DNA from: a virus
Lineage: Duplodnaviria; Caudoviricetes
Length of the DNA: 59,663 nt
IMG/VR virus record: IMGVR_UViG_3300034356_001545
Span: 1 to 59,663 of that record
Reading direction: 5' to 3' (one strand)
Shown here: positions 13,851-41,215 of the stretch, in pieces
How positions within the stretch are numbered: the first letter of the stretch is position 1
Layout: every line of letters begins with the position of its first letter
The notes under the pieces: model-generated
Database searches by the model: none
What the model was told of the DNA's origin: nothing
Seen by the model: the letters and a program-made list of their open reading frames with translations, nothing else
Translations under genes and position numbers: made by a program

Positions 13851-14362
13851 GGGTTTTCCATCCTAAGTAAAAAATTCGCTGGCAACATAACCCACCTCTT
13901 GTATATCGATAGACCTTTACTGTTGCTGACCTTAGTAGCAGTGCTATATCTTACGTGCTTATCGTAACCCTTACTCCTCCCATTTCGGTTTACCCATTTA
14001 AGGAATGTTGATTGATGTACACCAACAGCTAAAGAGGCTGAAAATGAAGATAGGTAAATCAATTTTGTTTCAATGTCAACATATATGTGAGACACCCCTC
14101 CGTTACCACCACCAGATATGTTGTAGCAGTTCTCTATCCTATACGCAGATATCCACAGGTTCTCAAGATCATTTAGCTGTTGCATTGTTTCTGCCCAGCA
14201 AATCACCTCCGTATGAAAGTTCTCCTTACCGTACACCTCAAATGCATCAACAAGGACCTTTCCAGACCCCTTGTATGACTTACTAAACCTAGAAGACCTA
14301 TGTTGTCCTATGTATATCCAGTTGTTTAACTTGTTGGTTGTCTTGTAGATGTATCCTATCAT
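13838..14362 (-). CDS. GIY-YIG homing endonuclease
   Basis: GYIYKTTN..N.WIYIGQH, Y.GSG, LE...I, YN; start MIGYIY. Confidence 0.9.
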   Translation of the reverse strand: MIGYIYKTTNKLNNWIYIGQHRSSRFSKSYKGSGKVLVDAFEVYGKENFHTEVICWAETMQQLNDLENLWISAYRIENCYNISGGGNGGVSHIYVDIETKLIYLSSFSASLAVGVHQSTFLKWVNRNGRSKGYDKHVRYSTATKVSNSKGLSIYKRWVMLPANFLLRMENPKFA

Positions 14363-14386
14363 AGCTGTATTTGTGTTGTGACAAGG

Positions 14387-14433
14387 CAAATATACGTAAT
14401 ATTTGGTGGTTTGGAAAATATTATGTACCTTCG
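14387..14433. promoter_or_regulatory. Divergent Bacteroidota-type promoters
   Basis: TATATTTG on minus (14394-14387); TTTG...TACCTTCG on plus (14402-14433). Confidence 0.65.
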
Positions 14434-14435
14434 CG

Positions 14436-14695
14436 TTAGACTAAGGTCTAGAGCACTAAAGAAACTAAGGTAAAGCGATCTAAAAGACAATCGCTTTAGC
14501 CAACAAGAGACAGGGTGTCGTCGCCTAAGCAGAGACACCCCACGTTCATCAGTGATAAGACGCTCAGCCACTAATGAATACGCGACAACTATAGTCTATT
14601 CGTTTTACCGCTATTATAGCTGTTGTTTACTCGTTTTCGCATATATAAAGCTAACAAGTAGGAGGTATACGGGTCCTTAGGGACCCTCCACCTCC
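14436..14695 (+). ncRNA. Candidate structured non-coding RNA
   Basis: Promoter followed by at least 5 inverted-repeat stems and no ORF of 60 aa or more on plus. Confidence 0.45.
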
Positions 14696-14800
14696 CAGCC
14701 CCCAATCATTTAACAGCTATTAAGACTCCTACTGTAGTCAATGTATAGGTTTACTTATGCAGCTTCTTCCTCAACCTAAGGGTTGACGTCAGAAGCATTA

Positions 14801-14890
14801 GAGTTAGAAATAATTATCTGGAGTGGGTAATTTATCTAGAATTAGATATAATTATCTGGGGTTAGATATAATTATCTAGGGGATAATATA
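14801..14890. repeat. About four tandem 20-bp iteron-like repeats (TTAGATATAATTATCT(G/A)G)
   Basis: Direct reading; each unit contains an AGATA-N4-TATCT inverted repeat or a degenerate version. Confidence 0.8.
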
Positions 14891-15221
14891 CATATATACA
14901 CGTACGCACGCGCAAACGGAAACGCAATCCCAGAGGTATGGCCCTCGCGCGCGCTGATTCCTATTGCAGGCTTTTGGCGTTTTGGTAGGTCGGCTATGGT
15001 GAGCGGCTATGGCGTTTGGTTGGTAGGTTTGGTGAGGAGTTCCGAAGCGAGGAACAATAGCCCTCCCTAACTATGCCCTAACTACTCCCTTACCCTCCCA
15101 CTACTCCCCACTTACCCCCACAAGGCTATGGGTTATGCATCTACGCTAACCCTCTGACTAAAACTTTTGTCGGTGATTATCAGCAAGTTACGGGTGGATT
15201 AGAAAAACTTTCACCTAAAAA

Positions 15222-15255
15222 CTTGCATATGTCAAAAGTCGTTATCACCTTTACA
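15222..15255 (+). promoter_or_regulatory. Early promoter (CTTGCATAT...TTATCACCTTTACA)
   Basis: Near-identical copy at 16895-16928 and related copy at 17815-17847. Confidence 0.7.
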
Positions 15256-15281
15256 CCATCAATCATTTAATCTACCATCCT

Positions 15282-15521
15282 ATGAGCAACGAAATCAAAT
15301 CAACCAAACTTCGTGCGGGTCGTTACCAAGTAAGCATCAAGGGTTTTCAGCCCTTTATAGTTCAAGAACGATTGAACAATAATTGTATGCCAACGGGAGA
15401 GTGGAATATGTTTGCTCCCGATGGAGAGTGGATGGACACGCTCCCTACAAAATCTACTTGTTTATGGATGTTGGGTGAAATGCACAAGGAGGGAAGATTG
15501 AATGAATACCGATTATCTTAA
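15282..15521 (+). CDS. Early hypothetical protein
   Basis: First ORF after early promoter. Confidence 0.7.
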   Translation: MSNEIKSTKLRAGRYQVSIKGFQPFIVQERLNNNCMPTGEWNMFAPDGEWMDTLPTKSTCLWMLGEMHKEGRLNEYRLS

Positions 15522-15526
15522 ATCAA

Positions 15527-15579
15527 GGTTAACTGAAGATGAGTTCAATACTCGAAACCTACTTCGGTAGGTCTTAACC
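15527..15579 (+). ncRNA. Type I hammerhead ribozyme (HHR1)
   Basis: GGTTAA-CTGAAGA-T-GAGT(TCAAT)ACTC-GAAA-CCTAC(TTCG)GTAGG-TC-TTAACC. Confidence 0.88.
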
Positions 15580-15595
15580 AAAAAAAACAATTGTT

Positions 15596-15958
15596 ATGAA
15601 AACTTACTTCCTCGTAGAAAAAAACATTGACAACCACAAAATGTCAATCATTTCTGATGCCACACTTAAGGACTTCATCAAGAAGAATTGCTATCGTGAA
15701 GAGTACCTTGACCAAAGCATTAAGGGCGTGCTGAATTCAATGAAGAGTGCAAAGGCAGTTTACTATGACCAAAGCGACTTTGTGTCAATTAGCAAATATT
15801 ACGTGTGCAAGTCAGTCGACCAAGCAAAGGCAGTAAAGCGCATCGAACTTCGTTTAATGATTGAGTGCCTTGAGGAGAGTTTTTGCTCCATTGATGAGAT
15901 GTTCCCGAAATCAGAGGCCGTAGTAAGGCATAGTACATTGTTAATTTATGAAGACTAA
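15596..15958 (+). CDS. Early hypothetical protein
   Basis: ORF starting 17 nt after HHR1. Confidence 0.7.
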   Translation: MKTYFLVEKNIDNHKMSIISDATLKDFIKKNCYREEYLDQSIKGVLNSMKSAKAVYYDQSDFVSISKYYVCKSVDQAKAVKRIELRLMIECLEESFCSIDEMFPKSEAVVRHSTLLIYED

Positions 15959-15972
15959 TTACAATATTAATA

Positions 15973-16022
15973 GGTTAACCGACGAGGCTTCAGTAGCCGA
16001 AACGCCTAAGGGCGTCTTAACC
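15973..16022 (+). ncRNA. Type I hammerhead ribozyme (HHR2, U4C core variant)
   Basis: GGTTAA-CCGACGA-GGCT(TCAGT)AGCC-GAAA-CGCC(TAAG)GGCG-TC-TTAACC. Confidence 0.82.
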
Positions 16023-16037
16023 AAAAAACAATTGACT

Positions 16038-16211
16038 ATGAACCATACATTTTTTTCAAGGACAGCCAACAAGGGAGTAACTGCCGAGGTAACGTTTGAC
16101 GTTGTATCTGACAAGGCTCCAAGCGAGACTGCGTTCTCAAAGGAACTTGGCGACCTGCTTGCTCAAGGCAAGATTATAGCCTACGGCTACACTACTCTAC
16201 AGCCTTACTAA
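16038..16211 (+). CDS. Early hypothetical protein (57 aa)
   Basis: Start reassigned to the ATG after HHR2, giving the same architecture as HHR1. Confidence 0.6.
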   Translation: MNHTFFSRTANKGVTAEVTFDVVSDKAPSETAFSKELGDLLAQGKIIAYGYTTLQPY

Positions 16212-16231
16212 CCAATAAAAAGATAGAAATT

Positions 16232-16420
16232 ATGAAAACTGAATTAAACAATATGGTACGAGCATACGCCGAGTACCTAAATGCTGTTGGAGACTTCGTC
16301 AATGCAACTGATGACCAAACGCGAAACAAATTAATTGCCTTCGACATCATTGAGATGCTATCCGTTGACCTCGGTGAGCAGATACAGGAAGCCCACAAAG
16401 TACTAACCGAAAATAAATAG
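16232..16420 (+). CDS. Early hypothetical protein
   Basis: A-rich leader TAGAAATTATG. Confidence 0.7.
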   Translation: MKTELNNMVRAYAEYLNAVGDFVNATDDQTRNKLIAFDIIEMLSVDLGEQIQEAHKVLTENK

Positions 16421-16425
16421 AAACT

Positions 16426-16647
16426 ATGGAAACGATAAATGACCTCCGCGTGTGGACATACTTTGACGGAACCGAAGAGGACGTAAACGACTTCGTCCGT
16501 GAGTGGGAGACCTTGTTAGGTACTAACGTAACGGCAGACCTGACAATAGATAGTGACGGAGGATACTCTTGGTACTGCGAAGCGTTCGTTAGTCAAGCAC
16601 AAATCGATGAGTTCAATATGGACGAAGATTGGTTCACGATTCAATAA
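16426..16647 (+). CDS. Early acidic hypothetical protein
   Basis: Leader TAGAAACTATG. Confidence 0.7.
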   Translation: METINDLRVWTYFDGTEEDVNDFVREWETLLGTNVTADLTIDSDGGYSWYCEAFVSQAQIDEFNMDEDWFTIQ

Positions 16648-16667
16648 CAAATAAACAATTAGAAACT

Positions 16668-16874
16668 ATGACAATTAGCCAGATCAAAAAACTAACAGCA
16701 GAAACTGCGCCCTACTACTTTTCGAGGGACACAATGCGATTCTTTAAACAAAGGATGAGCGACTTCAGCGTTAGCAAGTGCGAGGATGGTAGGTACCTAA
16801 TCCAAGCACCATCAAAATACGGAACGTCCGTCAGGTACTTTAATCCAAGTAATAACGAGTTGGAAATTAAATAA
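16668..16874 (+). CDS. Early hypothetical protein (YYFSRDTMRFF motif)
   Basis: Leader AATAAACAATTAGAAACTATG. Confidence 0.7.
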   Translation: MTISQIKKLTAETAPYYFSRDTMRFFKQRMSDFSVSKCEDGRYLIQAPSKYGTSVRYFNPSNNELEIK

Positions 16875-16953
16875 CAAATTGTTAATAACTTTCTCTTGCA
16901 TATTCCAAAATCCATTATCACCTTTACATAACCAATCAAGTAAAACAATTAAT

Positions 16954-17166
16954 ATGAACAACGAAACATCATCAATCGACAACATCATCGCCTACGAACA
17001 AGGCGAACTAAACGACCAAGAAGTCGTGTGCCTCTTCGCTGACCTTGTCAAAAGCGGTATGGCCTGGAGCCTTCAGGGCTCCTACGGCCGAACCGCGACT
17101 GCCCTAATCAAAGAGGGGTGGATAGACCGCGAGGGTAACGTCACCCTTGCTGTTTTAGAACTTTAA
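16954..17166 (+). CDS. Early hypothetical protein (AWSLQGSYGR motif)
   Basis: Follows promoter 16895-16928. Confidence 0.7.
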   Translation: MNNETSSIDNIIAYEQGELNDQEVVCLFADLVKSGMAWSLQGSYGRTATALIKEGWIDREGNVTLAVLEL

Positions 17167-17211
17167 TAAACAAATCGTAAAATAAAATCAACCAATAAAC
17201 AATTAGAAACT

Positions 17212-17808
17212 ATGGCTAATAACTGCTACAATTGGGTAATCATTCGCGGAGAGAAAGATATCCTTGACCTACTGCAAACCAAGTTCGAAACCTACCATTC
17301 TCACGAAGGCACATTCAGCGATTGGTGCGACACATTCTTCACCGACAAGCGTGAGAAGAAAAATGATGTGTTCGAGGAAATCTATGACTACGGAACTAAA
17401 TGGTTTGACTTTGAAGTAGAGCGTCGTCAAGACGATGACCTACTGATTAGCGGAGATTCTGCTTGGTCACCACCACAAGGATTCCTGCGCCGTTTGTCAG
17501 AAGAATATGCTGTTCTTATTCGCGGAGAGTACGAAGAATCAGGTAGTGACTTTGGCGGATATGCTGACTACGAGAAAGGTGTGATGGATGACAAATGCTT
17601 CACATATAGTGAGTGGATGTACATCAACAACGAGGAGAATTTCTTTTACCGACTTGAAGATGAAGTAGAATACTACGATACGTTTGATGACTATAAATCG
17701 GCCGTGCTTGATGGCTTTGAAAACGAACTGACCGAACAGCAAATTGCTGAAGTGCGCGAGGAATTTGAGCGCCAGCAAGATGTTTACAGAAATAGAATTA
17801 ACGCCTAA
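17212..17808 (+). CDS. YubB/DUF1281-like ferredoxin-fold protein
   Basis: MANNCYN.V.I.G, YGTKW, SAWSPP, YEE.G.DF.G. Confidence 0.7.
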   Translation: MANNCYNWVIIRGEKDILDLLQTKFETYHSHEGTFSDWCDTFFTDKREKKNDVFEEIYDYGTKWFDFEVERRQDDDLLISGDSAWSPPQGFLRRLSEEYAVLIRGEYEESGSDFGGYADYEKGVMDDKCFTYSEWMYINNEENFFYRLEDEVEYYDTFDDYKSAVLDGFENELTEQQIAEVREEFERQQDVYRNRINA

Positions 17809-17867
17809 TTCTTGCTTGCATAAGTTAGAAAGCATTTTAACCTTTAACCAACTAATAAATAAATAAT

Positions 17868-18020
17868 ATGAAAACCCACATCCCCCAGCAAATCATTGTG
17901 CCAGTATACTACCACATTGACGCAAACGCAAAGGTTCACTTTGACTTTGAGCAAATGACTGAATTCTTTGAGAACGAATTGAGTAACATATGCTCTACCG
18001 ACAAACAAATTAAATACTAA
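17868..18020 (+). CDS. Small early protein (MKTHIPQQIIVPVYY...)
   Basis: Manual translation, 50 aa, after promoter. Confidence 0.6.
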   Translation: MKTHIPQQIIVPVYYHIDANAKVHFDFEQMTEFFENELSNICSTDKQIKY

Positions 18021-32817: not shown

Positions 32818-33230
32818 TATCTGAATCGGTATAAAAACATCATAACGACAAGTGCTGCCGCTAAGAACAAAAGTAGGTAATCTTTTACCTTGCCCGTTTT
32901 GCTTTCCGGCTGAACTAATTGCGGTGGACACTCAGCTTGGACGCTTACCGCGTAGGGAACTTCCTTTACCAATGTTTTCACTATCATCTTGTCTTGGTAC
33001 TTCGTGATGACAATTTTGACGGTGTCGTTTTCAATCACCGCAGAGTCGCCATTATCTAGAACAGCAACTGTGTCAACTAGATACACTGGTGGGGTGATGA
33101 TGGTATCCCAGACCGTAATGGTGACTGGCTTCAGTATTGAAGGGTCCTTCTTTACTGCTTTGTTGAGATGATAGGTGGCGCTGCATCCTGTAAGAAGTGC
33201 AGCGACCACTAGGGTTGATAGGTATTTCAT
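32817..33230 (-). CDS. Putative unimolecular spanin
   Basis: Lipobox LLTGC, beta-rich middle region, C-terminal TM helix. Confidence 0.6.
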   Translation of the reverse strand: MKYLSTLVVAALLTGCSATYHLNKAVKKDPSILKPVTITVWDTIITPPVYLVDTVAVLDNGDSAVIENDTVKIVITKYQDKMIVKTLVKEVPYAVSVQAECPPQLVQPESKTGKVKDYLLLFLAAALVVMMFLYRFR

Positions 33231-36200
33231 TTTTTCTCTGGTATTTCGTATCCGTACAGCACGTAAGCTTCTTCGTTTGGTTTTAGTGCTCGTTTAACAT
33301 TTTTGTTTGCATCAGCAATCATCTTGTAGTTTCCTTTCTTGATTCCAATGTTTGTAATTGACTTGTACATCTTCTTGATTTCGTCAAGCTCTGCAAGCCT
33401 GTTGTCCCTAGATGCCCCAGTTAAGTCGCTGTACTGCTCCTTCTTTGTACGGAACTGATCCGTAAAGTAGTAGAACTGAACTGGGATGTTGAACTCATAG
33501 TCACGGATAACTGCACGAGAAGCAACTCGCCCAACAGCATCAAGCGGGCTGTACTTATCGGCCTCGGTCTCAAGACGTTTTTGCTCATCGCGGTACGATG
33601 ATGCAATAAACGGAGGAATAATCAATGACTTTAGTGTGTGACCACCATACTTGTAACCCTTCGTTAGTTTGCTGTCGTAGCTGTTGGTTATATCCCTTCC
33701 GTAAAAGTCCTTGTTTTCTGCAAGATTAGTTAAGAACGAGATACCCATATTAGGTTGAAGTAGGTCAACAACATACGCTGGGAAAGATAATGGGTCTGTA
33801 GCTAGGTCAAAGAAGCTTCCATATGGATCCTCCATAGAGTAGTCATAGGCAGTTGCAATGCCTTCCTTACTAACCTTAGTAGGTATAATGCTGTGTCCCT
33901 CCATCCAGTTTGGGCGGTTGTTCTTGATGTCCTCCTCAAGCTCATCATCATCCCCAAGTGCAAGAGATGCCAAGATGGACGTTATAGCTAAACGAGCTCC
34001 CATAATTGCAGCAGACCCAGCAAGACGACGAGACCCAGCTTTAATGTACTCAGCCTTTTGTTCTGGAGTCAAAGTCTTATCAGTCATACCCTTCATAAGG
34101 TCCTGCTGTCCGTTACGAATGTTTGCGCTGAAACTACGAAGGGATTCAAACTCAAAAGACAGGAAGTCTCCCGCTGGAAGTTTAGCGAGTGATGCGTACC
34201 ACTTTGGCAACCTAGAAAACGTTGGCGTGTTCTGCTTCACAAACTCAGCCGCCTCAGCGTGGACCTTATTCTTCTGAGCGTCAGTAAGCGAGTCGTATGA
34301 CTTCCCGTACATCTTCTTTGCAAATGATTGAATCTCTGAACGGAAGATTACTAGCTTGGTGTAGTCGTCAACGGCAGCATACTTCTGACCCACTACAGAG
34401 TCAAAGTTCTTGATTAAGTTTCTCGCCCTGTCAACATAACTAATGTAGTCGTTATCGTTCCCGGTTAAAGTGCGAGAGTATATGGCGTTTGTAAACCCTA
34501 AAAGGTTAGCGTTTACGTCTTGACCAATGATGCCATTGTCACCCATAATCTTGATAAGGGCCTCAGTCTCCGCGTCTGTTTCTCCATTTGCAAATAATTG
34601 AGCACGACGCTTAATGTCTCTTACAATGCTAGGGTTAATCACTCCATTTGCTGCCATAGTATACCAGCCACCAGTAAGGTTTTTACGCCACGTCGGAAGG
34701 TTATATATAACCTTAGACTTACGAGCAAGCTGAAGGGTCGTTAGGTATCCACTCATCCATATGTTATCAGACTCATAGATGTTCTGATTTGTGATTGCCT
34801 CATACACATCACGGTGAACGAATCGCCCATTAAGGGGGGAGAACTTATCCTTTACCTCTTTGTATTCACCAGTTGACTTCTCAGCGTCCGTCACCTCGTT
34901 CTTGATGAACTGGGTGCCGCCAAGTGATTCGCTTATCGCGTAGAGCATATGGCCCTTGTACTTGATGTTTGATAGAGCAATTGTCGTGTCAATAAATCGA
35001 ATAATTGGATCACGCTCCTTGCCTAGCAAATTTTGGATTGTCTCAGGCAATTCTTTGCGGCGTAGGAACTGTTCGCTTGGCAGCTTTATTCCAGATGGAC
35101 TTACAATTCCAAGCTTCTTAAAGTCGCTTCCGTTGCGAATCTTTTCGATGTCGGCAATGTAGTCGTCTATTGCTTTTGTTGCCTCCTTTAAAGTCTCGTC
35201 GTGAAGTAGCTCGAAGAACTCTCCAGCCTCATCTTCTTTAAAGCCTTCCTTATCGATGAGGTCATTAATTTTCTTTGACCGTAAAATCTCATACTCATAA
35301 GCAATAGCGTCACGACGTGCCGCATTTGACGGCTTAAAGTTCTTATCCTTCCAAAATCTATAACTGCCACGCATATATTGACCAAAGTTGTCAATAATTG
35401 TATTAACAGTTTCCTCTGGCATCGCGTGAAACTCTGGGCTGTTCACAAAGTCATCGGCAAACGAATCAATGTAGTTACGCATCGCATTTGCCTGTCCAAA
35501 TATCAGACTCCCATTAGGCTTAGACTCTAGTATTCTTTGATTCTCCGGGGTAAGTGTTCCATCAAAGATGTTACCCACTAAGTCAATAGTCTGAACATCT
35601 GCTTTTTTAAGCAGTTGATTCAGACCTTTTGTGAACTTCTTAATCTCACGACCCTCTACAGATAGCTGAGAACTCATACGCTCCTTAAATACCCGAATTT
35701 GCTTCTGGGTATCACTCCAAACAAAAGTCTTAGCTGTATTAACAGCTCTCTGCTTAAATGATAGCTGTTCTTTATCTAGGATTTCTTCACGTACATCACG
35801 AGAAGATGACTCTTTTAAATAGTTAGCTTCGTCCTTAATAAGGTTGTCGTTCAGCTTTCCAAAGTTGAAGATTACAGCCTCATAAAAGTCATCAGTTTGG
35901 AATCCATCATAACCAACAGATAGCATAGCTTCAGAAAAATCTGTGAAACTAAGAATGTAATCGTTATCTAAAAACTTACGCAAGTCATCAATAGAATACT
36001 TACCATATTTAGAATCACCAGATATGGTAGAACTTATTTTTAATGCGTTATCTAGTGGAGTCTTTAATGATTTTGGTATTAATTCAATGCCTTTAAATAG
36101 GCCCTGAAGTTTTAAAATCCGAGCTTCAGCCAATGACTTAAGTTCGTTCGCAAAATCATTGTTTGCTTTTGCATCAATGTCAAGGAAGTTATATTTATTT

Positions 36201-39200
36201 AATGGCGTAAAAATAAATTTGTTCCCATAGTCTAACGCCTTACTTGATCTTGATGTAAAGTAGAATCCGTATCCATATAGGGATCGTGCTCCTCCGTATA
36301 TTCTTTGCGGATCAAATGTATCAAATGAACCTTTTGTTGCGTGTATAAGTAATCCAGCTTTACTAGCTTCTGAAAGCTCTTGGAACGACTTAGAACTAGA
36401 CTCCTTAAGTATGTTGTCATATACTTTGTTGGCCTGACTAGAAGATGACTCAGATAGTTCTGAGTCCATAGCGTTATTACGCTCATCAAGAATTTCTAGG
36501 GCTTGGTTGAGAAGCTTAAGCGCACCTTCCCTTCCATCTTTTTCGTAGCGTTTGGAATCCCTAGCTTCTTGTAAAATTCTTCCGTAGTAAGCGCTTGATT
36601 CTCTGTCTGATCCGGGGAAGTTAACTTCTGCTTCATAGTATTGGATTGATTTTTCATCGATTAGATTGTTTGACTTGGCAAATGTAACTAAATTTTCTAA
36701 ATTATTACGCAAGCCCGAAATATTTACATCATCATAAGGAATCATTGCGAGATGGAATGACTTGTCAGATGGCACATAAGTAAATCCGCCCCCGAATCCG
36801 TAGTCATTTAGGGAGTCAATGATTCGCTTGGCATCGGCATCGCTCTTCGCCTTAAAGGTAACCTCCTGTGATTGGCCTCCAGTCTTGTACTCGACAATCA
36901 TAACTCCATTCTGAAAGTCTTCTTTTTTCACTGGGGCCATAATGCCAGCAACAGCAGACATAGCAAGGATGTCTTCCTTATTTCCCGCAATAGCAGGTCG
37001 CATTGAAACCTCCTGTGTGACAGAGTTTAACTCAGAGTCGTACCATCCACCAATAGTCTTTTCAATTCCGTATACTTGAACATCAAACTTTTTTGCGATG
37101 TTATTAAATGCATTAATGAATCGTTCAAATGATGGCTTCTTATACTCATCGCGAGCCTCAGATATCTCGTTAACGTACTTTGCACGATATGGAGCAATAC
37201 CCAAAATAGACTTAACGATGTTGTCGTTGATTTCGAGATTATTTACGGACGCACCGCCAGTAACAATAGCACGAGCAGCACGAATCTTAATTCGCTTCTT
37301 AAGCTCTGGGTCTCCCTTATCCTCGGCCATCTTAGAGCGATAATCGCCAAAGACATTCCTCACGTCTACGAACTCATTAAGAATCTTTAGGTCCTTAAAT
37401 CCAGTAATAATCCAAGGGTACGCAGGGTGCACCTTTGCGCCTTTAATTTTGCGAGAGTCTTTGACATCCATTTTAGCCAAGTCAAACTCAAGTACGGCAA
37501 CAAGGTCACCATATTGAGCATTTGCAAGTAGTGGCTCATTAACGTAGTCTAGGATGGCTTCAATCCTAGGCAAACCAAATCGTTTGTTTGCTTCTGCGGA
37601 AAACAAAGCCTCATTGAACTCAGCCCGTACTTCATATCCAACCTTCTTTGGGCCATCGTTTGGCATAAGTTCATTGAGTTCGGATAGCTTTTTAATCTGA
37701 AGTGGTAAACCCTTCTCAGCTAGTGCTGACTGAATTGGTTTTTTCTTTAGTTTAGAGTTGATATACTCAACAAGTTCAGCCTCAGTAGCCCGCTTATCCT
37801 TAACAGCCTTGTTTACTTCATCAAGCATATATCCCCAGAACTGAAAGTTTCCACGAATACCCCTGCTATCTTGAGACATAAGGAGCACACGACCATCAAA
37901 CTTCTTGAGCTTACTTAATATTTTCTTTGCTGTTTTCTCATCCGTGAATGCCCAACCCCCCTCTCCGAGGAGCGGGTAAAACACACCACCATCAAAGGTG
38001 TATGTAACCCCCGTTGGTGACTTTACGGTACCCGTTACAGCAAGGTCCATAGCGTACGTTATTGCTGGCTTGCCCACATACTCGCTAAGGTCTGCAAATT
38101 GTATTTTCTCCTTATCAAATTTGCGATCAACGTACGAAGCATCCCTACCTTGTCTAGAGCTAGACTCTGAAACGGGAGGTATAGACGTGGTTACCTCAGA
38201 CTCTAGTCCGGTGTATGTCTGCTCGTCAATTGATGACTCAAACAAGGCACCAGAGAACGAGTTCATAAAGTCAACGAACTCACCACGAGTGGTAATCTTA
38301 AGGCTTGGAAATACTTTTCCGATAAAGTTGTTTGTCCACTGGATCAGCTTGTCCATCGTGGACTTGCTAATCTTGCGACCATTAACAGCAATAATTCCTG
38401 CTGTCTGAGCCATAAACTCCTCGGGACTTTCTTTTGCTGAATACTCACCGCCTTGTACGAATCTTTCAACAGCATCAGCAAGTTGTTGGTCCTCTGCGGT
38501 TCCACTGCGAAGCACTCTAAGCAATCCTGATTGGAAGTCACTAGCAATCTTTTCTCTAGTCGCTTGGCTAGCCTTGGCAAACCTATTTACAAATGCTGCG
38601 TGGAACACCTCGTGGAAGGGAACCTCGGAGGTCATATCCTCGAGGTTCAGATGTATCTCATTCCTGGATGGGATAAACCTACCCGACTCAACACCAGAGG
38701 CAACAGACCCGCTCTTAGACACCTCGTCCATAGCGTCATTGAATTCCTTTCTGCTGTTGTGTACTATTATCTTCGTAGGAAGACCTAGTCGCCTCGCTAG
38801 CCTTTCAGCAGCAGATACAGCTTCAGTTACTTGCTCGCTACTTAATCCTTTGTTATTCTTTACAGGCTCTTGTTCGACAACTTGCTCGGTCACCTGCTCA
38901 GCGACAACAGTCTCAGTGGGGAGTACTACCCTTGCGGCCTTGCGCTCTGGGCGCTTGGCCGCCGGTACCCGCTCCTTAGTAGTTACATCACGAGTAACCG
39001 TCTCGTACTCCTGCATCCAGATAACCTCTGGAACATCTCCAATCTCCTTCTTACGCGCATCAATAGCGATGTCTAGCGCAAGTTCTGGGCGATTGACTAC
39101 TTGGATTCTAACAGGAGAAATATCTTCTCCCTTTGGTGTCCTTGGACGCATCACGACACCAGTAAGGTTTCCGTCAGCGTCAAGTATTGATTCTACGTAT

Positions 39201-41215
39201 TCTAATCCCAAGATGTTCTCGGCAACTTTAGGTTGCCTAGAAACTTCTTGCTTGGTGGCCTTATCGTATGTTACAACATCAATCGACCCGTCTTCTTGCG
39301 TTTCGATTACTGATGTCTGCCCTTCGGTCTCTGTGCCAACAGCAACCTCAAGGTTGTTTAGCCTTTCGAAGAGGCGGAACTTTCCGCGTCGGACTTCTGG
39401 TTCGACAATCGTGCGGCTACCCGCTCTAGGAGCTCCAACTGGGACTTCTTCGGTAACTTGTTCAGTTGTAGTAATTGTTTTGTTGTCATAGTATTCGATA
39501 TCATCAAATTTATCTTCTAGTGTCTGTATGTATGCTGTCTTTACATCGTCTGCAATGTCCAACGCATCAACCTCATCGATAGCGTTAAGTATTTGCTGTT
39601 GAGCCGCTTGGGCTTCAGTGTTGTCTACCTCTTGAGCCTCTGCTATTTTTTGGAAGACTTCTTGCTGCTCAAGTACTTGAAGTACTCGATCTGCTTCAGG
39701 CGACGTTCCGCTTGCGACTTGGATAGGTTGGACTTCGATAGGGGCTTGCCCTTCGACGACAGGACTTGGTATCCCTGCTTCTTCTTGAGTATCATATGCT
39801 GAGTATTTAGATTCTAAATCTTTTTGCTGTTGTATTAGGCCTCCAACTTTAGCTTTAATGTCTTTTGTGGCTTCTGTATCCTTGATGACTTTGGCCATTG
39901 AAGCGTAGCGCTTAATTTCATTGTCAATCTCAAGAAACCGCTCTAGGTCTTGTGGGTTTTGCGTTCCTACATATTCGTAAAACTTAGCGTCATCCGTTGC
40001 ATTACGAGTTCGAGTCTTAATAGACTCTGCTAACTTCTGAGAATAGTAATCTTGTTCCTCAACAGTAGAAGAAGCATCAAGCTTCTCCTTGTACTTGTTA
40101 ATCTCTGTTCTAGCCTTTGCGTTCTTCATATCGCGTCCAACAGAGTTGGCAAGCGCAGTAGCATCAGCTATAGTAGATGGTGTGTTGAAGACAGCACCGC
40201 CAACAGCACCCATAGCGGCGCCCTCAAATCCCTGACGGAATGCATCTCCAAGGTTTACATCTCCAGTACGAGCATATTGATCAACAGCAGATTGTCCGAA
40301 TCCAGTAGTAAACTCGGCAAGAGCCTCTTCTGTCACAGCGACGCCATTGGACTTTAATGCTCCTTTAGCAATCTCTTTTGCTGTTTGTTCAAAGGCTTGT
40401 TTTGTGATTTGTTGAGCGGCAAGTTTCTTTACGGCTCCAGACAAAATCTTTCCGCCGATCCCTTCCCCAAGCACCTCAAGTCCACCCATTGCACCAGTAT
40501 ATCCTGCTCGCATAAGCGGACTCATATCCTCATAGAACTTCTCTCCTTTCGCATCAAGGTGAGCTGATTGGGCGCCATAACCGCCCATCAGCGCAAGAGA
40601 TACTGGTGCTCCAAGTCCGCCAGTTCCAAGAGTAATTGCTGCCGATGTAATAGCAAGAGGCGCAGTTCCTAAAAGAAACTCTTCTGCCTGAAGTGCGGCA
40701 TCACCAAATTTACCCTGTGCAATGCTTTCCGTAAATGTTTGCTCAAACTTTGGACCTTCATCTCGAATCTTATCAATGGCAGATTTTGCCTGAACGTCAA
40801 TTGCTTCACGAGTAAGTGGCGTCGATAGTGGGGATGCGTATGATGCTGCCTTAAGTAAAGCACTTTTGCCAATCTCGTAAGTTTGTCCGAGGGCAGACTT
40901 GGCTACATTATACCAATTAGGCGTATCTACTTCAGATACATCTTCCTGATTAGATCCTTCAAACTTGGGAATTTCACCAAATGCAGCGGGGACTTTATTT
41001 GATGTATCCGAAGCAGAAGGTTCTGCCAAAGATTGTAAATTGGATGCCTCGGAAAGTTCTTTTTTTTTTACGTCAAAATCTACCTGTTCAGAATACACTG
41101 GATACTTATCAAGCATCTTGCTAACCAATACAGAGTCATCAACGTCCTTATACTGTGGATATTTTAACTTTACCTTGGCCGAAAATTCAGCTACTGACAA
41201 CTTAGGTTCTGGCAT
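33227..41215 (-). CDS. Giant polyvalent virion/ejection protein with zincin metallopeptidase and ADP-ribosyltransferase domains
   Basis: HEVFH at ~38600; HATKGSFDTFD...YGYGFYFT...YDG...E.VIF at ~35850-36350; hydrophobic Gly/Ala helices near N-terminus. Confidence 0.75.
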   Translation of the reverse strand: MPEPKLSVAEFSAKVKLKYPQYKDVDDSVLVSKMLDKYPVYSEQVDFDVKKKELSEASNLQSLAEPSASDTSNKVPAAFGEIPKFEGSNQEDVSEVDTPNWYNVAKSALGQTYEIGKSALLKAASYASPLSTPLTREAIDVQAKSAIDKIRDEGPKFEQTFTESIAQGKFGDAALQAEEFLLGTAPLAITSAAITLGTGGLGAPVSLALMGGYGAQSAHLDAKGEKFYEDMSPLMRAGYTGAMGGLEVLGEGIGGKILSGAVKKLAAQQITKQAFEQTAKEIAKGALKSNGVAVTEEALAEFTTGFGQSAVDQYARTGDVNLGDAFRQGFEGAAMGAVGGAVFNTPSTIADATALANSVGRDMKNAKARTEINKYKEKLDASSTVEEQDYYSQKLAESIKTRTRNATDDAKFYEYVGTQNPQDLERFLEIDNEIKRYASMAKVIKDTEATKDIKAKVGGLIQQQKDLESKYSAYDTQEEAGIPSPVVEGQAPIEVQPIQVASGTSPEADRVLQVLEQQEVFQKIAEAQEVDNTEAQAAQQQILNAIDEVDALDIADDVKTAYIQTLEDKFDDIEYYDNKTITTTEQVTEEVPVGAPRAGSRTIVEPEVRRGKFRLFERLNNLEVAVGTETEGQTSVIETQEDGSIDVVTYDKATKQEVSRQPKVAENILGLEYVESILDADGNLTGVVMRPRTPKGEDISPVRIQVVNRPELALDIAIDARKKEIGDVPEVIWMQEYETVTRDVTTKERVPAAKRPERKAARVVLPTETVVAEQVTEQVVEQEPVKNNKGLSSEQVTEAVSAAERLARRLGLPTKIIVHNSRKEFNDAMDEVSKSGSVASGVESGRFIPSRNEIHLNLEDMTSEVPFHEVFHAAFVNRFAKASQATREKIASDFQSGLLRVLRSGTAEDQQLADAVERFVQGGEYSAKESPEEFMAQTAGIIAVNGRKISKSTMDKLIQWTNNFIGKVFPSLKITTRGEFVDFMNSFSGALFESSIDEQTYTGLESEVTTSIPPVSESSSRQGRDASYVDRKFDKEKIQFADLSEYVGKPAITYAMDLAVTGTVKSPTGVTYTFDGGVFYPLLGEGGWAFTDEKTAKKILSKLKKFDGRVLLMSQDSRGIRGNFQFWGYMLDEVNKAVKDKRATEAELVEYINSKLKKKPIQSALAEKGLPLQIKKLSELNELMPNDGPKKVGYEVRAEFNEALFSAEANKRFGLPRIEAILDYVNEPLLANAQYGDLVAVLEFDLAKMDVKDSRKIKGAKVHPAYPWIITGFKDLKILNEFVDVRNVFGDYRSKMAEDKGDPELKKRIKIRAARAIVTGGASVNNLEINDNIVKSILGIAPYRAKYVNEISEARDEYKKPSFERFINAFNNIAKKFDVQVYGIEKTIGGWYDSELNSVTQEVSMRPAIAGNKEDILAMSAVAGIMAPVKKEDFQNGVMIVEYKTGGQSQEVTFKAKSDADAKRIIDSLNDYGFGGGFTYVPSDKSFHLAMIPYDDVNISGLRNNLENLVTFAKSNNLIDEKSIQYYEAEVNFPGSDRESSAYYGRILQEARDSKRYEKDGREGALKLLNQALEILDERNNAMDSELSESSSSQANKVYDNILKESSSKSFQELSEASKAGLLIHATKGSFDTFDPQRIYGGARSLYGYGFYFTSRSSKALDYGNKFIFTPLNKYNFLDIDAKANNDFANELKSLAEARILKLQGLFKGIELIPKSLKTPLDNALKISSTISGDSKYGKYSIDDLRKFLDNDYILSFTDFSEAMLSVGYDGFQTDDFYEAVIFNFGKLNDNLIKDEANYLKESSSRDVREEILDKEQLSFKQRAVNTAKTFVWSDTQKQIRVFKERMSSQLSVEGREIKKFTKGLNQLLKKADVQTIDLVGNIFDGTLTPENQRILESKPNGSLIFGQANAMRNYIDSFADDFVNSPEFHAMPEETVNTIIDNFGQYMRGSYRFWKDKNFKPSNAARRDAIAYEYEILRSKKINDLIDKEGFKEDEAGEFFELLHDETLKEATKAIDDYIADIEKIRNGSDFKKLGIVSPSGIKLPSEQFLRRKELPETIQNLLGKERDPIIRFIDTTIALSNIKYKGHMLYAISESLGGTQFIKNEVTDAEKSTGEYKEVKDKFSPLNGRFVHRDVYEAITNQNIYESDNIWMSGYLTTLQLARKSKVIYNLPTWRKNLTGGWYTMAANGVINPSIVRDIKRRAQLFANGETDAETEALIKIMGDNGIIGQDVNANLLGFTNAIYSRTLTGNDNDYISYVDRARNLIKNFDSVVGQKYAAVDDYTKLVIFRSEIQSFAKKMYGKSYDSLTDAQKNKVHAEAAEFVKQNTPTFSRLPKWYASLAKLPAGDFLSFEFESLRSFSANIRNGQQDLMKGMTDKTLTPEQKAEYIKAGSRRLAGSAAIMGARLAITSILASLALGDDDELEEDIKNNRPNWMEGHSIIPTKVSKEGIATAYDYSMEDPYGSFFDLATDPLSFPAYVVDLLQPNMGISFLTNLAENKDFYGRDITNSYDSKLTKGYKYGGHTLKSLIIPPFIASSYRDEQKRLETEADKYSPLDAVGRVASRAVIRDYEFNIPVQFYYFTDQFRTKKEQYSDLTGASRDNRLAELDEIKKMYKSITNIGIKKGNYKMIADANKNVKRALKPNEEAYVLYGYEIPEKK

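Follow-up and report, generated by a model that had tools for sequence, protein, structure and literature searches.

A type I hammerhead motif ahead of a small gene in a lake-water phage genome belongs to a large viral subfamily and may process a polycistronic transcript

The window analysed here (the whole stretch of DNA under study, 59,663 bases in length) is a whole IMG/VR virus record and is estimated to be 98% complete. The minus strand carries structural genes (encoding tail, portal, large terminase and virion proteins) at both ends of the window; the structural block also holds an ORF of 2662 aa (33227-41215, minus strand) for which no PHROG family was found at E≤1e-5. A plus-strand block extends from 15282 to approximately 32550, beginning with many small ORFs and continuing with exonuclease, primase/helicase and ribonucleotide reductase genes. 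The terminase matches 112 records from cultured phages, all with less than 60% identity, 68 of them from Flavobacterium phages and 15 from Cellulophaga phages, and the nearest cultured relatives of the phage, as placed by sequence similarity, infect Flavobacteriia. The DNA sequencing runs holding the locus are lake-water metagenomes, and among the 24 sequencing runs listed none holding it is recorded as RNA. A tRNA scan of the window found none, and a megablast comparison of positions 14000-18000 with phage records returned no match.

The first ORFs of the plus-strand block encode putative proteins of 79, 120 and 57 aa (table 1), and none of these ORFs, which adjoin the elements described below, matched a Pfam or PHROG family. 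The 74-nt gap between the stop of the 79-aa ORF (15521) and the start of the 120-aa ORF (15596), both on the same strand, is filled by an element that we call HH1, with the sequence GGTTAACTGAAGATGAGTTCAATACTCGAAACCTACTTCGGTAGGTCTTAACC (15527-15579, plus strand). A second copy, HH2, begins 14 nt past the stop of the 120-aa ORF, so that HH1 and HH2 flank one gene. Scans of positions 14300-16300 for sigma-70 promoters and terminators found sites no more commonly than in shuffled sequences, one sigma-70-like match lying at 15938-15965, where a promoter would speak against joint transcription of the flanking genes. A Bacteroidota-type promoter pattern (TTTG, 17-23 nt, TANNTTTG) had no match, compared with 1.56 expected by chance. 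Upstream of the block, the divergent gene blocks are separated by 890 nt free of genes, and this region contains three direct copies of an A/T-rich element of about 26 nt (14799-14882, plus strand), which are 77-100% identical and have a start-to-start spacing of 38 and 20 nt; these could be promoter, operator or origin repeats.

Table 1. Features of the HH1 locus and its surroundings, with positions in the window and the basis of each reading.
Feature	Position	Strand	Basis and remarks
79-aa ORF	15282..15521	+	first small ORF of the plus-strand block; stop ends 5 nt before HH1 stem I; relatives in L006-L009
HH1 stem I	15527-15532 GGUUAA with 15574-15579 UUAACC	+	6 bp; sequence and fold; 5/6 pairs changed on both sides in relatives
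HH1 core C3-A9, CUGAAGA	15533-15539	+	read from the sequence; same in 32/32 aligned sequences, as demanded by the search pattern
HH1 extra U between A9 and G10.1	15540	+	read from the sequence
HH1 stem II, 4 bp, with 5-nt loop UCAAU	15541-15553	+	sequence and fold; 2/4 pairs covary
HH1 core G12 A13 A14 (GAA)	15554-15556	+	read from the sequence
HH1 stem III, 6 bp (A15.1-U16.1 plus 5 bp), UUCG loop at 15563-15566	15557-15572	+	sequence and fold; 4/6 pairs covary
C17 in the GUC triplet, predicted cleavage 3' of this base	15573	+	position from the hammerhead consensus applied to the sequence
A-rich leader without Shine-Dalgarno-like purine run	15580-15595	+	sequence; similar leader after HH2
120-aa ORF between HH1 and HH2	15596..15958	+	ORF list; relatives in L002-L005
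HH2, type I hammerhead-like	15973-16022	+	61 bits, E 4.1e-12; 59.9 bits with the leave-lineage-out model; fold; C17 = 16016
57-aa ORF	16038..16211	+	start 21 nt past the predicted HH2 cleavage site

The hammerhead consensus comprises C3 U4 G5 A6 N7 G8 A9, G12 A13 A14, the pair A15.1-U16.1 and H17. HH1 agrees with it throughout, having CUGAAGA, GAA, the A-U pair and C17, with one U inserted after A9, and its topology is that of type I, helix I being open and helices II and III capped, with stems of 6, 4 and 6 bp. Helix II is closed by the G10.1-C11.1 pair (G15541-C15553), which is G-C in 32 out of 32 aligned relatives. Folding of positions 15520-15590 with RNAfold yielded exactly the hammerhead three-way junction as both the MFE and the centroid structure (-14.7 kcal/mol, z -2.77); none of 200 shuffled versions folds as stably, and the junction is kept within a 221-nt context. 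The preliminary description of this DNA had recognised a complete type I hammerhead with CUGAAGA, stem II, GAAA, a UUCG-capped stem III and GUC, and every one of these elements is in place, the element as such being delimited to 15527-15579. The extra U that it reported after A9 is U15540, and the cleavage that it predicted after C15573 follows from the consensus; the predicted 3' product begins with U15574, 22 nt before the ATG at 15596.

A motif of this size may arise by chance, and we therefore looked at how often this happens. Our own descriptor, which covered all three hammerhead topologies on both strands and allowed an optional insertion after A9, had HH1 as its sole match in the window. 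In 200 dinucleotide shuffles of the window it produced 84 loose matches, distributed over 56 of the shuffles, just one of the 84 having at least 16 stem pairs in total, which is the count of HH1. The motif alone thus has a chance probability of about 1 in 200 per window, which is only moderately strong and not decisive when many windows are considered. A search with the Rfam hammerhead covariance models, proposed as a check in the preliminary description, did not detect HH1. The whole window gave no match to Rfam at gathering thresholds, and positions 15400-15700 gave no hammerhead family at E≤10, just noise from unrelated families. Considered separately, RF00163 (Hammerhead_1, gathering score 34 bits) had no match at E≤10 in the whole genome, and RF03152 (RAGATH-1, gathering score 56.3 bits) had nothing at HH1, its single match in the genome being unrelated (12.7 bits, 33305-33345). 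A blastn search of phage records with the 77-nt element (E≤10) retrieved only chance pieces of 18-33 nt. With the descriptor statistics being moderate and Rfam silent, the verdict on HH1 has to rest on its relatives.

Searching IMG/VR with the two flanking proteins yielded eight loci in six contigs. An identical hammerhead occurs in two contigs (seen as L002/L003 and again as L006/L007), and the locus L005 has it too, with unrelated sequence upstream of it. Among the relatives that diverge, the closest (L004/L074) carries a hammerhead variant that lacks the extra U and shows compensatory changes in stems II and III: one stem II pair is G-C in place of A-U, and stem III, 1 bp shorter, is formed by different pairs. 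Two further loci, L008 and L009, keep the 79-aa gene and have a downstream gene unrelated to that of the window; at the place of HH1 both have a G+C-rich UUCG hairpin (2740-2790 in each).

To extend the sampling beyond these relatives, IMG/VR was searched with a pattern that fixed only the core, loop II and GAAAC and left stem I free. It gave 82 matches in 81 viral stretches; 62 of them have the complete hammerhead architecture, and the other 20 resemble coding sequence. Stem I is exactly 6 bp long in all 62, though the filter asked for just 3 pairs. From these data we assembled 32 distinct sequences into an alignment, having admitted only candidates in which stems I and III each hold an uninterrupted run of at least 3 pairs. 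Conservation of the core and loop II in it is true by construction, since the search pattern fixes both, and only the extent and variety of the pairing are informative. In this alignment 99.8% of the 504 stem cells are paired, versus 26.6-36.9% after displacement of the 3' partners by 1-3 columns, and changes on both sides are found in 11 of the 16 pairs, with all three stems contributing (table 1). The covariation score of 0.675 compares with 0.123 for shuffled data and was reached by none of 500 shuffles.

A covariance model was then built from 30 sequences that included neither the window nor the aligned hammerhead of the syntenic relative L074 (the leave-lineage-out model), and it was run with filters off across the whole window. 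HH1 scored 67.8 bits (E 1.5e-13) and HH2 59.9 bits, and nothing else in the window reached E 1. As a negative control, the pattern used on IMG/VR was applied to bacterial and archaeal genomes, in which it has at least 120 matching stretches; among the matches listed, the model accepted 0 of 120. Because of this comparative evidence, i.e. the covariation and the score under a model blind to its own lineage, HH1 is a genuine hammerhead motif and not a chance match.

HH2 shares its stem I with HH1, and its stems II and III covary; its loop II reads UCAGU, and a similar A-rich leader of 21 nt, counted from the predicted cleavage site, runs up to the ATG at 16038. In the core of HH2, CCGACGA, the conserved U4 is replaced by C (base 15980). 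This C4 variant is common to the window and two other assemblies, and it is the sole deviation at position 4 among the 88 distinct full-length family sequences; in L004 and L005, relatives with about 84% identity, the core of the orthologous HH2 copy is canonical. Substitutions of U4 lower the activity of minimal hammerheads. HH1 and HH2 together constitute two same-strand copies flanking a gene, the arrangement by which clustered phage hammerheads are recognised, with HH2 carrying C4.

When used for a broader survey, a family covariance model located 138 sites, of which 89 are distinct, at 68 loci, and these frequently form arrays along one strand between small ORFs. Arrays of 3 to 8 copies occur in related contigs, the largest, in L031, packing eight copies into about 7 kb. 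Of 94 distinct contexts, 91 have an ORF of at least 30 aa that opens with an ATG no more than 120 nt past C17; the median distance from C17 to the ATG is 24 nt, 76 of the 94 contexts have it within 40 nt, and most values are 21-24 nt. One of three phage records examined, that of the cultured Flavobacterium phage vB_FspP_elemoE_6-9C, contains a family member (NC_055854.1, 16301-16364, minus strand, 49.1 bits), located between two minus-strand genes and 28 nt before the next ATG. The core of the 88 distinct full-length members, a set ascertained with a model of one subclass, is CUGAAGA in 52, CUGAUGA in 24, CUGACGA in 11 and CCGACGA in one. A nucleotide is inserted after A9 in 15 of the 88, accompanied by several different stems II and III, and it is U in each of the 15. 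Some members in related contigs (L019, L043 and L054) have matches to RF03152 of 23.8-29.1 bits, far under its gathering score. Taken at the level of sequence and predicted structure, the family represents a large and uniform subfamily of type I hammerheads in viral contigs that current Rfam models miss.

Fast hammerhead cleavage at low Mg2+ needs a tertiary contact between helix I and loop II. Stem I of HH1 is short and open, and such a contact with its loop II is only suggested by the sequence. In 77 of the 88 members stem I ends in an outermost G-C pair flanked by A on both sides; 7 of the 11 exceptions have a 4-nt loop II, a count to be read with the ascertainment bias of the set in mind. 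Members with a 4-nt loop II (e.g. GUAA; in L031, L047, L053, L084 and others) have A-U as the outermost stem I pair and different flanks, and the usual 5-nt loop II goes with the G-C pair and the A/A flanks. This association may be a signature of alternative tertiary contacts between loop II and stem I.

Considering these data together, we find it quite probable that the segment 15527-15579 of the plus strand would function as a type I hammerhead cutting a polycistronic transcript of small genes into single-gene mRNAs with defined ends. The following scenario can be envisaged. The small-gene block of the plus strand would be transcribed as a unit, presumably early in infection, and the RNA would fold into the three-way junction and cleave itself 3' of C15573. 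The upstream 79-aa cistron would then end in the compact structure of stems II and III bearing a 2',3'-cyclic phosphate, the weak, A/U-rich stem I of 6 bp would melt, and the 120-aa cistron would be freed with a 5'-OH and an A-rich, unstructured leader of 22 nt. HH2 would act likewise for the next gene, provided that its variant core is still active. The supposed benefit would be a separate stability or translation of each cistron. Other members of the family probably cut long transcripts into single-gene messages in the same manner. Polycistronic self-processing leaving a 5'-OH leader was the role suggested for HH1 in the preliminary description, and the suggestion draws comparative support from the presence of HH2 after the same gene, from the median distance of 24 nt to the ATG and from a published proposal, to which we now turn.

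Clustered phage hammerheads and a proposed role for them in transcript processing have been in the literature since 2011, and HH1 is a further example that will not surprise a specialist. The accessible text of Perreault et al. (2011; PMC3088659) describes prophages in which multiple hammerheads border a single gene or a short block of genes, reports that tandem sets cleave in vitro, and proposes that long phage transcripts are processed into gene-length mRNAs. The prophage clusters, as described there, resemble the present case in that several copies share a strand and are separated by small genes whose identity varies, in their phage context and in the role proposed. They differ in coming from Clostridium, Azorhizobium and Agrobacterium prophages and in mixing types I-III, whereas the subfamily described here is uniformly of type I and comes from uncultured phage contigs and one cultured Flavobacterium phage. 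The same text places the HHphage ribozyme of the haloarchaeal viruses HF1 and HF2 in the early region, 13 nt upstream of a start codon, and the 5' end of a transcript has been mapped no more than 3 nt from its cleavage site. Like HH1, it thus sits a few nucleotides before a start codon, but according to that account it has an unusual architecture and a high Mg2+ need and precedes the first ORF of an archaeal-virus transcript, whereas the core of HH1 is canonical and there is an ORF on either side of it. A review from 2017 (PMC6155905), in its accessible part, notes that such hammerheads flank small non-conserved ORFs and regards their role in prokaryotes and phages as still an open question. 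In the literature on hammerheads in Flavobacterium phages, and in phage genomes since 2015, we found nothing on the present subfamily, although the supplementary alignments of PMC3088659 may already contain it.

Outside this group, RAGATH-1 (RF03152), of which the literature that we surveyed makes passing mentions only, is similar to HH1 in its type I topology and in a short stem I adjoining the core; its consensus, however, includes an upstream hairpin and has one stem II pair marked, whereas HH1 has a regular stem II of 4 bp and no upstream hairpin. The claim of the preliminary description that an additional nucleotide after A9 is known from natural hammerheads is documented. In the hammerhead of CChMVd, trans-cleavage proceeded 3-4 fold faster with a U between A9 and G10.1, as relayed in an excerpt of PMC3705267 citing De la Pena and Flores (2001), and hammerheads of Penelope-like elements (PLEs) conserve a nucleotide at this place, going by the accessible text of PMC4209133. 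The CChMVd (+) and PLE hammerheads therefore share with HH1 an extra core nucleotide at the same position, but CChMVd is a viroid (a small circular RNA) and PLEs are eukaryotic retroelements, neither being a phage, and the natural residue in CChMVd is A, not the U of HH1. Type I hammerheads also occur in the 5'-UTRs of chrysoviruses and fusariviruses, where self-cleavage has been linked to expression of the downstream ORF (PMC13725137, accessible part). As presented there, these are of the same type as HH1 and are likewise found just upstream of a coding region; they belong to eukaryotic RNA viruses with cap-independent translation, and they imply neither homology to HH1 nor evidence for bacteria.

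Several other explanations of HH1 deserve consideration. The motif might be a chance match, or a structured element devoid of catalysis (e.g. a stabilising hairpin cluster) that resembles a hammerhead, as might be argued from the silence of the Rfam models, from the 56 of 200 shuffled windows matched by loose descriptors, and from L008 and L009, in which the 79-aa gene is followed by a plain hairpin at this position. We find this barely credible in the light of the E value of 1.5e-13 obtained with a model ignorant of the lineage, and of a core kept across 88 distinct sequences (the C4 of HH2 excepted) while the three helices vary with compensation; a plain hairpin, moreover, needs no CUGANGA, GAAA and U-H junction in register. 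Another idea, raised for clustered phage hammerheads in the accessible text of PMC3088659, is that of a circle: HH1 and HH2 would excise the mRNA of the 120-aa gene, the ends of which would be paired via the identical stem I strands and ligated by the reverse reaction or by a host RtcB-type ligase. HH1 and HH2 do flank one gene with the same stem I, and the excised RNA could therefore re-form a hybrid hammerhead. We nevertheless deem this highly improbable, as HH2 has C for the conserved U4, consecutive copies in other arrays differ in stem I (with five stem I 5' strands among the eight copies of L031), and a search for circular or spliced products in the work reported in that text detected none.

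Two more interpretations are compatible with self-processing and concern what HH1 may do besides defining mRNA ends. One of them regards HH1 as real but serving mainly as a portable junction, with hammerhead-plus-leader repeats of about 65-77 nt between small, presumably early genes allowing recombination to shuffle, add and remove cassettes, and with cleavage being secondary. BLAST comparison of five related loci (L004, L005, L078, L008 and L009) with the window places the start or end of homology at 15525 or 15526, i.e. at the 5' edge of HH1, in all five. The locus L078 contains a hammerhead of 53 nt that matches HH1 at every base, set between genes that differ from those of the window on either side. 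Another hammerhead of L078 precedes a homologue of the gene that begins at 16645 in the window, a gene before which the window lacks a hammerhead, and in L004 an extra unit of hammerhead plus gene stands at the position of the window's 79-aa gene. The hammerheads of these related phages furthermore have one common stem I sequence and similar leaders. Given the homology edges at HH1 and the gain and loss of units, the hammerhead marks the joints of a mosaic region. A DNA recombination site, however, would leave the conservation of the core and the compensatory changes in three helices unexplained, breakpoints at conserved intergenic elements are to be expected where flanking genes diverge or are replaced, and the pattern is based on one group of related phages; a mainly junctional role seems to us possible but not likely. 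The other interpretation holds that cleavage switches on downstream translation: the folded ribozyme, 16 nt before the ATG, would block the 30S subunit until it removes itself, and the short 5'-OH leader would then be efficient, which would matter most in the Shine-Dalgarno-poor Bacteroidota. This agrees with the tight spacing of C17 and the ATG, with the A-rich leaders of HH1 and HH2 without a Shine-Dalgarno motif, with the Flavobacteriia as hosts of the nearest cultured relatives, and with the finding that 5'-UTR self-cleavage by type I hammerheads is essential for translation initiation in some fungal RNA viruses (PMC13725137, accessible part). That precedent, however, concerns eukaryotic cap-independent translation, and the spacing may be no more than a sign of genome compactness, with an ordinary-sized ribosome-binding region coming after the ribozyme. 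GGAG-like motifs occur in several family members, and the family is therefore not tied to Shine-Dalgarno-less hosts. We regard such a switch as rather unlikely. A combination is also conceivable, in which the hammerhead and its leader of about 16 nt form a portable 'expression joint' repeated between early-gene cassettes, both freeing single-gene mRNAs with a 5'-OH and supplying DNA homology for cassette exchange. This is a decidedly speculative proposal; if true, a hypervariable region (probably devoted to host takeover or anti-defence) would be organised by ribozyme repeats.

Whatever its additional roles, the HH1 locus offers a clean example of a canonical hammerhead in a near-complete phage genome, and a single narrow search starting from it exposes 88 distinct full-length type I members. 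The processing hypothesis is made testable by two regularities: the next start codon lies at a fixed distance of about 22-24 nt, and the hammerheads coincide with cassette breakpoints. The cultured Flavobacterium phage with a family member provides a system for such testing. There are also implications for gene annotation. A listed ORF of 87 aa (15948..16211) would run across HH2, and the ATG at 16038 (giving 57 aa) is therefore the likelier start of the next gene, to which the annotation should be moved; small ORFs called across such hammerheads should in general be distrusted. The annotation of at least one cultured phage probably suffers from the same problem on the opposite strand. In NC_055854.1 (L095, 16289-16396), an annotated plus-strand CDS of 35 aa, KNV12_gp65, covers the hammerhead amid a block of minus-strand genes, and it is probably a spurious gene call.
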